A DNA stretch of 64,000 nt from Planctomycetota bacterium (GCA_038060895.1 JBBTCT010000022.1:256001-320000), one strand, 5' to 3'; positions 16,580-18,923 are shown, counted from the stretch's first letter. The notes: generated by a model from the sequence alone, not told the origin. Translations and numbers: made by a program.

Positions 16580-16873
16580 GGGCAAAGCATCGTACGCGCG
16601 GGGCTGCTGTCGCGCGAGTGGCAGGGGGAATAGTCGCCGGAACGCTCAGCCGAGATCGTATAAAATAAGTACTCTGCGCTGCTTAATGATATGCGTGGCT
16701 GGAGTCTGACGCACAGCGAATTTCAACGGGATTATGCACTTGACAAACTTAAAATCCATGAACGAAACTCGTACAGGCATCATGGTTTGCGTCGATTATG
16801 GCCCCGCGATTAAACGAATAAGAAAATCGCCAGAGTCCCGTTTCAGGACGCGATTTTGGCCCGCGACGAGGAT

Positions 16874-17002
16874 TCAGGACTTACGGCGAGGTTTCCCGGC
16901 CTTCTTAGCCCGCTTCAGGGGGGGTGTAGCGAGGGCCTTCCGGATCATGGCGTCGAAGTCCACGCGGGTCACTTCTCGGTGGCTCTCTGGCTTGGGTTTC
17001 AT
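16874..17002 (-). CDS. 42-aa basic peptide inside the IS
   Basis: AAGGAG RBS; MKPKPESHREVTRVDFDAMIRKALATPPLKRAKKAGKPRRKS; too short for the ORF track. Confidence 0.6.
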   Translation of the reverse strand: MKPKPESHREVTRVDFDAMIRKALATPPLKRAKKAGKPRRKS

Positions 17003-17049
17003 CTATCTATCTCCTTGGGGGTTATCAGGCTGATTCCCCTAGAAAGTAT

Positions 17050-17078
17050 TTGACAGCGTCTGCGGCGCAGCTTAGGAT
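17050..17078 (+). promoter_or_regulatory. Sigma70-type promoter for the wHTH-tRNA-tRNA unit
   Basis: TTGACA-17 bp-TAGGAT; ATG lies 7 nt after the -10, implying a leaderless mRNA. Confidence 0.75.
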
Positions 17079-17085
17079 TTCCCAG

Positions 17086-17475
17086 ATGCGAAGGAACAAC
17101 AAGATCGTGAGCCTTGGAGAGGAAATCGCGGCGAAGCGCCGGGAGCTGGCGGCGCTTGAGGCCGAACTTGACATCGAAGTCAGGCGGTATAGCGGTGGTC
17201 ATGCGAAGGCTCCACAAGCGGTGGTGACACCGCCTAGACCTGCGGACCCTGAAGAGGTCCTTCTGAGTGATGCCATCATCGCTGGCAAGGTGGTGCCTCT
17301 CTTGGACAGGGAGCCGGATCGGGTGTTCACCGTGGATGATATCACAAGATTGACCGGAGTGCCGCGCCACCTTCTGGTGATGTCTATCGGGCGCATGGTG
17401 CGCTGGCACAAGGTCCACAAAGTGGAAGCTGGCAAGTACAAGGCATCCACGGTTAAGAAAGCGATGGAGGGATAA
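17086..17475 (+). CDS. Passenger protein: N-terminal coiled coil plus putative C-terminal winged helix
   Basis: EEIAAKRRELAALEAEL coil, Pro-rich linker, then VFTVDDITRLTGVPRHLLVMSIGRMVRWHKVHKVEAGKY (helix-turn-helix plus wing pattern). Confidence 0.65.
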   Translation: MRRNNKIVSLGEEIAAKRRELAALEAELDIEVRRYSGGHAKAPQAVVTPPRPADPEEVLLSDAIIAGKVVPLLDREPDRVFTVDDITRLTGVPRHLLVMSIGRMVRWHKVHKVEAGKYKASTVKKAMEG

Positions 17476-17504
17476 AGAAAAACCCTCGGTCGTTGGCCGA
17501 GGGT
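17474..17504 (-). terminator. Minus-strand intrinsic terminator between the wHTH gene and the tRNAs
   Basis: ACCCTCGGTC-GTT-GGCCGAGGGT hairpin preceded by AAAGAAAAA, so the U-tract exists only on the minus strand. Confidence 0.65.
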
Positions 17505-17515
17505 GTACGTCGGTT

Positions 17516-17607
17516 GGAGAGGTGTCCGAGTGGCTTATGGTGCTGGTTTCCAAAACCAGTGAACGGTGGTGACACACCGTCCGAGGGTTCGACTCCCTCC
17601 CTCTCCG
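17516..17607 (+). tRNA. tRNA with Ser-type body and CCA (Trp) anticodon
   Basis: GGAGAGG/CCTCTCC acceptor, G73, G15:C48, CTGGT-TTCCAAA-ACCAG anticodon arm, long variable arm ACGGTG/CACCGT, GAGGG-TTCGACT-CCCTC T arm; 3' CCA not encoded. Confidence 0.92.
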
Positions 17608-17625
17608 TTTTGCTGTTCTGAGGCT

Positions 17626-17720
17626 GGCCGGGTGGCGGAACTGGTTTACGCGCCCGACTTGGAATCGGGTGGTTGTCTCTTGACGGGGGCACCATGCGGG
17701 TTCGAATCCCGTCCCGGTCA
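17626..17720 (+). tRNA. tRNA with Leu-type body and UGG (Pro) anticodon
   Basis: GGCCGGG/CCCGGTC acceptor, A73, D arm GCG-GAACTGGTTTA-CGC with A15:U48, CCCGA-CTTGGAA-TCGGG anticodon arm, ~26-nt variable arm, GCGGG-TTCGAAT-CCCGT T arm; 3' CCA not encoded. Confidence 0.92.
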
Positions 17721-17780
17721 GTCTCATTTTTGAAAGATCGAAGCGCCTTTGCGAAGTGCTTGAGGCTGGCGCGTGTCAAA

Positions 17781-17809
17781 AGAATACAACAAGACTGGGT
17801 GCGTGTCAA
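17781..17809 (-). promoter_or_regulatory. Sigma70-type promoter antisense to the tRNA pair
   Basis: Minus strand TTGACA (17809-17804), 17 bp, TATTCT (17786-17781), pointing into the tRNA genes. Confidence 0.7.
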
Positions 17810-17841
17810 CTTGCGAAATTGACGCACCGCGCCAACTCTGA

Positions 17842-18795
17842 CTAGCGCTTCACATCCCGCTTTGGCGCTTCCAGAGTGAGGCGTTTTCCTTCGGTGCGCT
17901 GGATCGCGTCGAGCATCTTCGCCCCGTCTGACTTCTTCCGGTTGTTGAACGTCCAGAGGTAGGAATCGAGGTACTTCGGAAGGTAGTCATGCCCAACGCC
18001 GTGGAAGATGCCCACGATGGAAGTCTTGAAGTTGGCGAAGAGGCCCTCAACGCCGTTCGTCGTGACGTCCCCACGGGCGTACTCTTCGATGGAGTGGTTG
18101 ACGGTTTCATGCTTCACCATCATCCGCCCTGGCGTGACGTACAGCTTGGATTCGTCTGAGTGAAGCACCGTCCGCTTGGGATCAACGTTCTTCATTACGA
18201 AGCGGCGGATGTCCCGCGCGTTGGCCTTGGGCGCTGGCTTGACGACGGCACGCGCGGACCCTCCACGCTGAACCAGCGCCAGCACGGTTGACTTCTTCAC
18301 GGCCTTGCCACGGCGCGATCCGCGCCCCTTGTGGCCGAAGTAGGTTTCGTCCGCTTCGATGATCCCGGCGAGTGGTGACTTGTCGGAGTTCTGGAGAGCG
18401 TGGCGCACCCGATGGCAGAGAAACCACGCGGTGCGATAACTGCCGAGTTCAAGGTGCCGCTGGATTGCCAGCGCCGAGATTCCTGTCTTGCTGGACGAAA
18501 TGAGGTAGAAGGCCAGCAGCCACTTGTTGAGCGGGATGTGGCTGTCCTCGAAGATCGTGCCAACGGTGCAAGTGAACTGCTTCCGGCACGCCACGCAGAA
18601 CAGCAGCCCCTTGCGAATCTTCTTCTCCGCGTCTGGCTTGAGCCGGGCGACCTTCTCGCGTTCGGTGCAGCCACAGTGCGGGCAAACGGGGCCAGAGGGC
18701 CAGCGCACCGCTTCGATGTAGTTACGCGCGGCGTCCTCGTCTGGGAAGAGAGAGAAGATGTTCGTCAGGCTCACGGCATCGGGCGTCGGGATCAT
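17842..18795 (-). CDS. IS1595-family (ISXO2-like) DDE transposase
   Basis: Zn ribbon CPHCG..CVAC, GTIFEDSHIPL, IEADETYFG, LHSDE, VNHS, TNGVEG..FK, YLDSY. Confidence 0.95.
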   Translation of the reverse strand: MIPTPDAVSLTNIFSLFPDEDAARNYIEAVRWPSGPVCPHCGCTEREKVARLKPDAEKKIRKGLLFCVACRKQFTCTVGTIFEDSHIPLNKWLLAFYLISSSKTGISALAIQRHLELGSYRTAWFLCHRVRHALQNSDKSPLAGIIEADETYFGHKGRGSRRGKAVKKSTVLALVQRGGSARAVVKPAPKANARDIRRFVMKNVDPKRTVLHSDESKLYVTPGRMMVKHETVNHSIEEYARGDVTTNGVEGLFANFKTSIVGIFHGVGHDYLPKYLDSYLWTFNNRKKSDGAKMLDAIQRTEGKRLTLEAPKRDVKR

Positions 18796-18820
18796 GGGCG
18801 TCTCCTTTGAGTACGCCTAA

Positions 18821-18849
18821 AAGATACTAGATCATGCTTGTTTTGTCAA
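18821..18849 (-). promoter_or_regulatory. Transposase promoter with -35 inside the TIR
   Basis: Minus strand TTGACA-17 bp-TATCTT, then AAGGAG RBS and ATG at 18795. Confidence 0.75.
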
Positions 18850-18923
18850 GTGCATAATCCCGATTTCAAGCTTAACATTATGATATTAAATAAGTTATGA
18901 CACATTGTCTGCAACGGTTCATT

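Follow-up and report, generated by a model that had tools for sequence, protein, structure and literature searches.

Several natural systems tie a particular transfer RNA (tRNA) to the reading of a particular set of genes. In Streptomyces a single leucine tRNA, bldA tRNA-Leu(UAA), gates genes that carry the rare TTA codon at particular places, and the tRNAProX/ProRSx pair of the same genus is an instance of deliberate mistranslation by a natural tRNA with its anticodon and identity in disagreement. Phage suppressor tRNAs illustrate how a tRNA of a mobile element alters the reading of that element's own genes, stop codons being recoded. The locus described here is an IS1595-family insertion sequence in a 64,000-nucleotide stretch of DNA from a Planctomycetota bacterium (GCA_038060895.1 JBBTCT010000022.1:256001-320000), the whole of which is termed the window. 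The element carries two tRNA genes with long variable arms, one with a serine-type body and the anticodon CCA (tRNA 1) and one with a leucine-type body and the anticodon UGG (tRNA 2), and related transposases that travel with a tRNA(UGG) place CCA codons at two fixed sites. If the tRNA does gate these codons, the system would resemble bldA/TTA and phage suppressor-tRNA recoding. It differs from bldA, a cognate tRNA within a host developmental circuit, in that body and anticodon disagree and that tRNA and target genes lie on one transposon. Phage suppressor tRNAs reassign stop codons, whereas here a sense codon, CCA, would be reassigned, and tRNAProX/ProRSx joins a proline-type body to a dedicated synthetase, whereas no synthetase gene is present among the open reading frames (ORFs) of the element.

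Closest in the logic of body and anticodon are the nematode nev-tRNAs (PMC3333845, PMC4300185), class II leucine-type tRNAs with glycine or isoleucine anticodons that are charged with leucine in vitro. These are eukaryotic and chromosomal with other anticodons, and the accessible portions of those reports mention no matched codons in a linked gene, whereas the window tRNAs ride on a mobile element. The allo-tRNAs of Acidobacteria and other bacteria (Mukai et al. 2017, PMC5389517) likewise combine a long variable arm with an anticodon unfit for the serine or leucine body and have been given putative roles in missense or nonsense suppression or in RNA-based regulation, some of them lying near toxin-antitoxin genes or a transposon-related ORF. 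The allo-tRNAs are characterized by a 12-bp acceptor branch in an 8/4 or 9/3 layout, which is found neither in the two window tRNAs nor in the 69 relatives described below, all of these being 7/5, and the accessible portion of that report describes neither carriage by IS1595 elements nor a link to transposase codons. A literature search, with subscription journals mostly outside its scope, returned no account of tRNA passengers in IS1595 elements or of a natural bacterial leucine-type tRNA(UGG).

The Two tRNA Genes of the Element

The tRNA genes begin 40 bases past the stop codon of a 129-amino acid ORF on the same strand (Table 1). ARAGORN identifies the first as Trp(cca), 94 nt, and the second as Pro(tgg), 97 nt, they score 48.8 and 55.5 bits with the Rfam tRNA model (gathering score 29), and the minimum-free-energy folds of both are cloverleaves with a 7-bp acceptor, a 5-bp T stem and a long variable arm. 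The eighth acceptor pair drawn by ARAGORN uses base -1, and because this base is not conserved in relatives both tRNAs are assigned as 7/5. The three methods agree with the initial annotation of this DNA, which had described two canonical 7/5 class II tRNAs with non-cognate anticodons. Its anticodon bases are likewise upheld in independent assemblies, as the contigs from the DNA run of an independent study (X3) have zero differences from the element, including 17525-17730 across both tRNAs, and a contig from a further study (X5) is identical over 17446-17641, covering tRNA 1 and the start of tRNA 2.

A 2023 review (PMC9976931) describes serine identity as making no use of the anticodon and resting on the variable arm, G73 and the first acceptor pairs, the anticodon arm as dispensable for leucylation, and bacterial proline identity as composed of G35, G36, A73, G72 and G15-C48. 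With G1-C72, G2-C71, G73 and a long variable arm, tRNA 1 has the sequence features predicted for a SerRS substrate. Its identity to the host tRNA-Ser(GGA) is 77% overall and complete in the acceptor and T arm. In tRNA 2, A73 is combined with a leucine-type D arm and a variable region of 26 nt. The host also carries ordinary tRNA-Pro(UGG) and tRNA-Trp genes.

The anticodon loops of the two tRNAs are complementary over six bases, five of which follow for any pair with complementary anticodons. tRNA 1 may read Trp codons as Ser or may serve as a decoy for tRNA 2; the window transposase has no extra Trp codons on a reading of the alignment. So far tRNA 1 has been found only in the window element, the 119 listed matches to its pattern, in which a fixed D-loop length may miss relatives, containing one real tRNA (L267) that belongs to an unrelated array. 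This array (L267:1-5000) is low in GC (33%) and holds 17 tRNAs without an IS1595 transposase, its long-arm members being Trp CCA (88 nt), Lys CUU (88 nt) and Met CAU (87 nt). Further long and odd calls by ARAGORN in the host genome (C1, C5, C32, C33, C46 and C22:398993) are without the T-loop sequence and look like false positives in GC-rich coding DNA.

A Leucine-type tRNA Family Associated with the Transposase Clade

Relatives of tRNA 2 were collected from three directions. A single-protein transposase search, with nearest relatives 41-44% identical, gave a long tRNA Pro(tgg) at 2 of 16 loci in representative genomes and 5 of 21 in metagenomes; with duplicates counted once and the window tRNA 2 added these amount to five distinct tRNAs, all UGG. 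A tRNA-first scan using the pattern of a leucine-type D arm followed by U33-UGG gave at least 119 loci and, together with the earlier sets, 62 full cloverleaves (57 distinct), one of which, L049, is a chance match in coding DNA. Among the matches listed, a transposase lies within the fetched 8 kb at 30 of 53 pattern-derived tRNA loci, L109 being on the same contig as L002, and the rest of the pattern matches comprise fortuitous matches in coding sequence, truncated halves of tRNAs and, in Firmicutes, repeated units of the 5' half. The third scan used an alignment of 12 transposase proteins, is unbiased with respect to the tRNA and gave at least 593 loci, the best 80 of which (38-47% identity) were searched with a covariance model and ARAGORN. 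A class II leucine-type tRNA is present in 11 of these 80, with the anticodon UGG in eight (two being copies in one genome), GGG in one and CUA in two. In three further loci the transposase is followed directly by a class I tRNA(UGG), one locus has a degenerate tRNA (L352), and 65 have none. Since class I and class II tRNA(UGG) both accompany these transposases, the anticodon is kept while the body varies. The initial annotation had looked to ordinary tRNAs in related elements as one form of counter-evidence; tRNA-bearing relatives mostly carry UGG and never an ordinary Leu(UAG).

The family comprises 69 distinct relatives from many phyla, most of them adjoining transposases of the window clade. 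In an alignment of the 69 sequences 99.0% of the pair cells are standard pairs and 22 of 24 pairs have changed on both sides, with a covariation score of 0.773 compared with 0.186 for shuffles (0 of 500 reach the observed value) and 0.09-0.16 for slid partners; the alignment was fitted to a model, which favors pairing, and the margins are very large. A 7-nt anticodon loop is found in 68 of the 69, with UGG in 65, CUA in two and GGG in one, although the search pattern imposed UGG and the D arm on most members, so that their conservation is circular there and counts in the transposase-first sets only. Position 37 in these 68 is A (44), G (22) or C (2), a purine in 66. All but one of the 69 sequences have A73, the T loops are canonical, the 1:72 pair is G-C in 57 and C-G in five, and the variable region ranges from 5 to 51 nt. 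The core is leucine-type, with A14 and A15 in the D arm and a U before the T stem; the tertiary core of leucine tRNAs contains A15-U48. Of the bacterial proline set G35, G36 and A73 are present, G72 occurs in five of 69 only, and position 15 is A. The compensatory changes in 22 of 24 pairs, taken with the codon association described below, indicate that the leucine-type family is under purifying selection as tRNA.

These data bear on the possibility that the tRNAs are hitch-hiking or decaying passengers without function. The 65 of 80 best transposase loci without a tRNA, the degenerate copies L352, L106 and L141, and the isolation of the serine-type tRNA(CCA) among the 119 listed pattern matches, the unrelated array apart, are in keeping with it. 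Compensatory change across 69 sequences from many phyla, and the codon association, are not, and passenger status is very improbable as a general account, being possible for tRNA 1 only.

Several members or near-members of the family have unusual features. L099:4412-4526 has an intron-like insertion of 31 nt that immediately follows UUUGG in the anticodon loop. L114:660-761, a further odd tRNA-like gene with a long arm, directly follows a leucine-type tRNA(UGG), forming a tandem pair like that of the window with another partner, its anticodon loop having 6 or 8 bases and holding UAG. The two CUA members (L294:2704-2789 and L297:2705-2790) are leucine-type class II tRNAs upstream of the transposase on the same strand. 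A role in suppressing an in-frame TAG of their own transposase was considered and rejected, as the ORFs are intact, the stops are TGA and the conserved sequence past the stop is the end repeat. In Ruminococcus, Oscillospiraceae and Lachnospiraceae metagenome-assembled genomes (L063, L082, L093, L100, L121 and similar) two to five repeated units per contig consist of a tRNA-Leu-like 5' half up to UUGGG followed by a conserved non-tRNA tail; these units are not called as tRNAs and adjoin a normal tRNA-Leu(UAG).

Matched CCA Codons in the Transposase

Transposase ORFs from all loci with tblastn alignments of at least 270 residues were compared, identical proteins being collapsed from 150 to 122, and were grouped by the presence of a UGG or GGG tRNA in the same locus or its absence, a tRNA beyond the fetched flank being possible in the tRNA-less group. 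The CCA share of proline codons is 27.8% of 450 in the 39 tRNA-bearing genes (including L353) and 9.7% of 847 in the 81 others. In the other seven four-fold codon families the ratio for A-ending codons is 0.99-1.16, and the GC content at third codon positions is 0.69 in both groups.

The excess is placed at two sites. In the linker window before the catalytic domain (columns 350-370) CCA is present in 33 of 38 tRNA(UGG)-bearing genes compared with 11 of 81 others, and CCG in 2 of 38 compared with 37 of 81. In the C-terminal window a few codons before the stop (columns 620-628) CCA is present in 25 of 38 and 5 of 81, and both windows contain CCA in 24 of 38 and 2 of 81, respectively. The two exceptions in the latter group are L296, a third, truncated copy at a contig end of a tRNA-bearing element, and L352 with its degenerate tRNA-like gene, which adjoins the transposase and has a UUUGGCC loop. 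In the tRNA(UGG)-bearing genes CCA encodes every one of the 20 prolines at column 356 and 22 of 24 at column 625, and the sole element with a GGG anticodon (L353) has CCT at both columns. The window transposase has CCA at both sites (Table 1). The association between codon and anticodon is a direct observation, tRNA(UGG)-bearing transposases placing CCA at two fixed sites. Because the anticodon is kept across class I and class II bodies and the matching codons are fixed in the transposase, the tRNA is considered to read the marked codons.

Shared descent fails to explain conserved third positions, since the median pairwise protein identity among the compared transposases is 44%. On a FastTree tree, from which L079_4411 and L323_6027 were left out and on which L294, L297, L353, L296 and L352 were unlabelled, the tRNA-bearing label changes at least 14 times. 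Nine independent pairs on supported branches show CCA going with the tRNA in about six, against it in none, and no difference in about three.

The remaining prolines follow a different pattern. In tRNA-bearing genes 7 of 105 alignable CCA codons fall in columns that are at least 70% proline, compared with 84 of 279 other proline codons (p 3.5e-7), whereas the corresponding numbers for tRNA-less genes are 14 of 71 and 198 of 674, with no avoidance. Recoding of the whole gene (CCN read as Leu) was rejected, as no proline occurs at eight conserved-leucine columns and conserved prolines stay proline in tRNA-bearing transposases. Outside the transposase, the peptide genes have CCA in their N-terminal part in 10 of 13 elements, and the winged-helix genes have no CCA enrichment (6 of 60 proline codons).

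An extra tRNA-Pro, with the tRNA(UGG) charged by ProRS through G35, G36 and A73 and supplying CCA decoding capacity, would account for some of these features. The host is GC-rich and uses CCA less often than the element, which is lower in GC (58% compared with 66% for the genome), the window transposase uses CCA for 6 of its 15 prolines compared with ~12% in the host, and codon compensation of this kind would be a role as proposed for phage tRNAs. G35, G36 and A73 are conserved proline determinants, the five members with C1-G72 resemble genuine tRNA-Pro, and proline is the usual linker-site residue in tRNA-less relatives. The body argues otherwise, G72 being missing in 64 of 69 with A15 in place of the G of G15-C48 and the leucine-type core conserved, and so does the distribution of the codon, as the CCA enrichment is position-specific with avoidance at conserved prolines (7/105 versus 84/279), a pattern that a genuine tRNA-Pro would not produce. 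Proline identity is impossible for the CUA variants, and the host already has a tRNA-Pro(UGG). This alternative is considered unlikely.

As judged from sequence features, decoding would most likely insert leucine, or both leucine and proline where the host tRNA-Pro competes, and not only proline, because the leucine-type features of the body are kept and CCA is avoided at conserved prolines. The leucine-type core, the lack of G72 and G15-C48 and the CUA variants point in the same direction. Toward proline point G35, G36 and A73, the CCG-encoded linker proline of tRNA-less relatives, and the harm done by leucine at proline codons in yeast (PMC11028032).

Cargo Proteins and Regulatory Signals

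Related elements share the cargo layout of the window, with a small basic peptide, a coiled-coil/winged-helix ORF and a tRNA. The 42-amino acid peptide gene proposed in the initial annotation stands, having homologues in the second IS1595-type element of the host (L367) and in 11 other elements, although no Pfam, NCBIfam or PADLOC family matches it and a word-based search returned the peptide itself as the sole match. The coiled-coil/winged-helix label given there to the 129-amino acid ORF draws on weak winged-helix and coiled-coil matches alone, among them a MarR match below threshold, weak hits to Protein Data Bank (PDB) sequences, and an Atlas model with a predicted local distance difference test score of 0.60 and a template modeling score of ~0.48 to the winged helices of the RNase R N terminus and MarR. 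An alternative TTG start at 17050 would extend this protein to 141 residues. An exhaustive search of 1.84 billion representatives found two relatives, a search of genome contigs with the protein gave no locus, and a word-based search gave the protein alone. In blastp comparisons among the cargo proteins of 13 elements nothing is similar to it, the ORFs at the analogous position in related elements having no detectable sequence similarity.

Three promoter-like sites occur in the element compared with 0.8 +/- 0.8 in shuffled sequences, these being consensus matches and not proof of function. The site at 17050-17078 ends 7 bases before the ATG of the 129-amino acid ORF and would, as predicted, yield a nearly leaderless mRNA. 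The site directed back across the tRNAs bears out the convergent promoter/terminator pair of the initial annotation, at the level of consensus matches, as a possible source of RNA antisense to both tRNAs, and this predicted RNA or the 3' end of the transposase mRNA could span both tRNA genes. A 12-nt direct repeat (17768-17779 and 17798-17809, 30 nt apart) lies in the same area, its second copy being overlapped by the antisense promoter-like site. On the minus strand the copies read TTGACACGC(G/A)CC, starting with a -35-like hexamer, and could constitute either a double promoter or an operator to which the winged-helix protein binds.

For the most part transposase and tRNA converge, and in about 15 loci the tRNA lies 10-100 nt past the transposase stop codon, an arrangement like that of the window. 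In L162, as in the window, a terminator-like hairpin on the transposase strand lies beyond the tRNA; L163 is without it. This convergent layout with a terminator beyond the tRNAs suggests an added antisense link between the tRNA and transposase transcripts. The same arrangement would suit a tRNA-shaped RNA without a decoding role, which would function in processing, as a stable structure at a 5' or 3' end, or as an antisense partner limiting the transposase mRNA. Such a role leaves unexplained the conservation of the anticodon across class I and II bodies, the purine at position 37, A73 and the canonical T loop, as well as the matching CCA and CCT codons of the transposases; moreover, the tRNAs of L002, L025, L026 and L003 are not convergent with the transposase and the CCA sites are still kept. 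A non-decoding RNA has a slight chance of being correct. The two amber-suppressor (CUA) members, for their part, make sense only in translation.

The initial annotation proposed conditional mistranslation throughout the proteome, restrained by RNA-RNA pairing, in an addiction or abortive-infection role. As weighed here, this reading has the tRNAs acting as toxins that cause Trp-to-Ser and Pro-to-Leu substitutions, with the winged-helix protein, the peptide or an antisense RNA keeping them under control. Some features speak for this. SerRS and LeuRS need no anticodon (PMC9976931), leucine at proline codons is highly toxic in yeast (PMC11028032), and allo-tRNAs have been reported near toxin-antitoxin genes (PMC5389517). 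The order of a DNA-binding protein first and a putatively toxic gene second is like that of type II toxin-antitoxin operons, an antisense RNA could be made from the promoter-like and terminator-like pair, and sibling elements carry PIN/VapC or DUF4258 cargo. The order is, however, the only resemblance to a type II system, the element encoding no protein of a toxin family. PADLOC assigned zero families to the three window proteins, and its matches to the analogues in other elements (E 0.002-0.007) are noise, so that no known defence family is matched beyond noise. A repressor would presumably be unable to neutralize a stable tRNA that had already been made when the locus was lost, and enrichment of the transposase in the very codon to be misread is the opposite of self-protection. 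At least three tRNA-bearing copies are present in one genome (L288, L289, L296) and two different elements in the window host; because several copies share single genomes the tRNA appears to be tolerated. Addiction or abortive infection agrees less well with the codon evidence than does a private decoding gate within the element, and a role as toxins is rather improbable, a toxin-antidote or defence function as such being neither supported nor excluded.

Cargo of other kinds was seen in related elements. Two plasmid-borne transposase relatives of ~40% identity, L165 (Methylobacterium oryzae pMOC1) and L166 (Roseomonas marmotae plasmid), have a hypothetical protein, a PIN/VapC toxin gene and a small ORF in place of the tRNA. 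A tRNA(UGG)-bearing element (L026:762-1627) encodes a DUF4258 ORF (34.6 bits, cut-off 25) followed by an XRE-type helix-turn-helix ORF, likely a toxin-antitoxin pair.

Element Boundaries and Host Genome

The target-site duplication in the IS1595 family is typically 8 bp. Six related intact elements of 2.2-3.1 kb have exact 8-bp duplications and end repeats similar to those of the window element, the duplication of which is 7 bp. The element occupies 16727-18862 (2136 bp, 58.1% GC), and all parts of the intact element that had been described earlier, the perfect 21-bp repeats, the ATTTCAA duplication and the full transposase, are present at their places (Table 1). The transposase matches DDE_Tnp_IS1595 (PF12762, E 2.3e-29), Zn_ribbon_IS1595 (PF12760, E 5e-12) and NCBIfam NF033547 (194 bits, cut-off 75), and the element thus has the IS1595/ISXO2-type DDE transposase with an N-terminal zinc ribbon, the terminal inverted repeats and the target-site duplication of the family. 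These features, and the carriage of passenger genes, are shared with other IS1595 elements, from which the window element differs in its 7-bp duplication and in having a tRNA operon as passenger. The element presumably belongs to the ISNwi1-like, passenger-carrying subgroup. Its left inverted repeat is closely resembled by the ends of L163, L136 and L002.

An X3 contig joins 16719 directly to 18863, skipping 2143 bases, which correspond to the element plus one copy of the 7-bp duplication; support for this empty site is weak (one contig with 23 letters on the shorter side), and the boundaries are exact. By blastn the element is single-copy in its own genome. It is an intact, recently mobile IS1595-type transposon.

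Table 1. Positions of the element, its genes and predicted signals, counted from the first base of the window
Feature	Position	Strand	Basis or remark
Left target-site duplication copy, ATTTCAA	16720..16726	.	Sequence; the same 7 letters fit either side of the X3 empty-site joint
Left terminal inverted repeat, 21 nt	16727..16747	+	100% complementary to 18842-18862
Gene for 42-amino acid basic peptide (helix motif, then Pro/Lys-rich tail)	16874..17002	-	ORF and homologues in related elements
Promoter-like site, TTGACA-17-TAGGAT	17050..17078	+	Consensus match, 10/12
129-amino acid ORF, predicted N-terminal coiled coil and C-terminal winged helix	17086..17475	+	ORF; weak matches
Terminator-like hairpin between winged-helix gene and tRNA 1, on transposase strand	17482..17504	-	Hairpin search
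tRNA 1, serine-type class II body, anticodon CCA	17516..17607	+	ARAGORN, Rfam, fold; bases in X3 and X5
tRNA 2, leucine-type class II body, anticodon UGG	17626..17720	+	ARAGORN, Rfam, fold; bases in X3
Promoter-like site pointing back across both tRNAs (antisense)	17781..17809	-	Consensus match, 10/12
IS1595-family DDE transposase, 317 amino acids	17842..18795	-	Pfam, NCBIfam
CCA codon, Pro311, C-terminal site	17863..17865	-	Seven codons before stop; plus strand TGG
CCA codon, Pro141, linker site	18373..18375	-	One residue before Pfam DDE domain (142-284); plus strand TGG
Promoter-like site for transposase, -35 box inside right inverted repeat	18821..18849	-	Consensus match
Right terminal inverted repeat, 21 nt	18842..18862	-	Perfect match to left repeat
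Right target-site duplication copy, ATTTCAA	18863..18869	.	Sequence; X3 empty-site joint

The window lies within a 5.42-Mb genome bin of 47 contigs (86.5% complete, 65.8% GC) that originates from groundwater or aquifer metagenomes. Outside the window the host has a second, different IS1595-type element (contig C9:98600-100660, locus L367:1599-3659) with a transposase 48% identical to that of the window and degenerate end repeats. This element is without a winged-helix ORF and carries the homologous 42-amino acid peptide and a 73-nt class I tRNA(UGG) with G1-C72 and A73. About 57 kb upstream of the window start, C22:195134-199316 is a dense one-strand array of ~40 tRNA genes with most anticodons, several being odd in length and one being called with a 4-base anticodon.

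Discussion

The reading given nearly an even chance is that the tRNA(UGG) serves as a private decoder, reading marked codons in the genes of the element itself, and thereby gates the transposase. The conserved cargo would form a small operon, with the winged-helix gene followed by the tRNA or tRNAs, plus the small basic peptide gene. During translation the leucine-type tRNA(UGG) would decode CCA codons of the element, the marked ones lying at the boundary of the DNA-binding and catalytic domains, near the transposase C terminus and probably in the peptide gene, and alternative forms of the proteins would result. Functional transposase output would in this way be coupled to expression of the cargo operon, with the winged-helix protein and convergent antisense transcription as its probable controls. 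Pro-to-Leu errors across the proteome would arise only incidentally and at a low level, as CCA is a minority codon in GC-rich hosts. Expression, processing and charging of the tRNA, the amino acid inserted and the effect on transposition are all steps that we infer.

A more specific form is that this IS1595 lineage has a private sense-codon reassignment, in which a leucine-charged tRNA(UGG) reads CCA at the domain boundary, the C terminus and in the peptide, an active or inhibitory form of the protein is made only with the tRNA operon switched on, and, in the window, the serine-type tRNA, the anticodon of which (CCA) imitates the marked codon, is a decoy or second recoder. This form is put forward tentatively, as a doubtful possibility.

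Several observations weigh against a private decoder. The transposase works without a tRNA, since 65 of the 80 nearest loci have none, and the linker-site proline is common in tRNA-less relatives too, as CCG; because these relatives encode it in that way, proline is perhaps the residue needed in the linker. No proline codon occurs at the eight conserved-leucine columns. The amber-suppressor elements L294 and L297 keep both CCA codons and have no in-frame TAG. A leucine-charged UGG tRNA that also read CCG would damage host and element, and engineered tRNA-Leu variants reading proline codons are very harmful in yeast (PMC11028032). The sign test on the independent pairs gives a median p of 0.031 (range 0.016-0.25) from few pairs, and the UGG and D-arm conservation is in part circular as noted above. 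In X7, the sole RNA library with any share of the element (0.10), two contigs fall inside the transposase and none on the tRNAs; DNA carry-over is possible, and the library gives no evidence on expression either way.

Natural tRNAs with disagreement between anticodon and body are rare and their purpose is mostly unknown, and here one is carried as a conserved passenger by a transposon lineage that spans many phyla, accompanied by a recognizable signature in the genes of the transposon itself, where matched rare codons occupy fixed positions. Were the tRNA(UGG) to be charged as an extra tRNA-Pro, the family would be a new kind of tRNA-Pro with a leucine-type body and variable arms of 5 to 51 nt. 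If instead the tRNA is a private decoder, the system would be a natural, local sense-codon reassignment and would provide compact, apparently tolerated class II scaffolds for genetic-code engineering. Insertion sequences would then control their transposition through a private codon-tRNA pair, which would constitute a new layer of transposon regulation.

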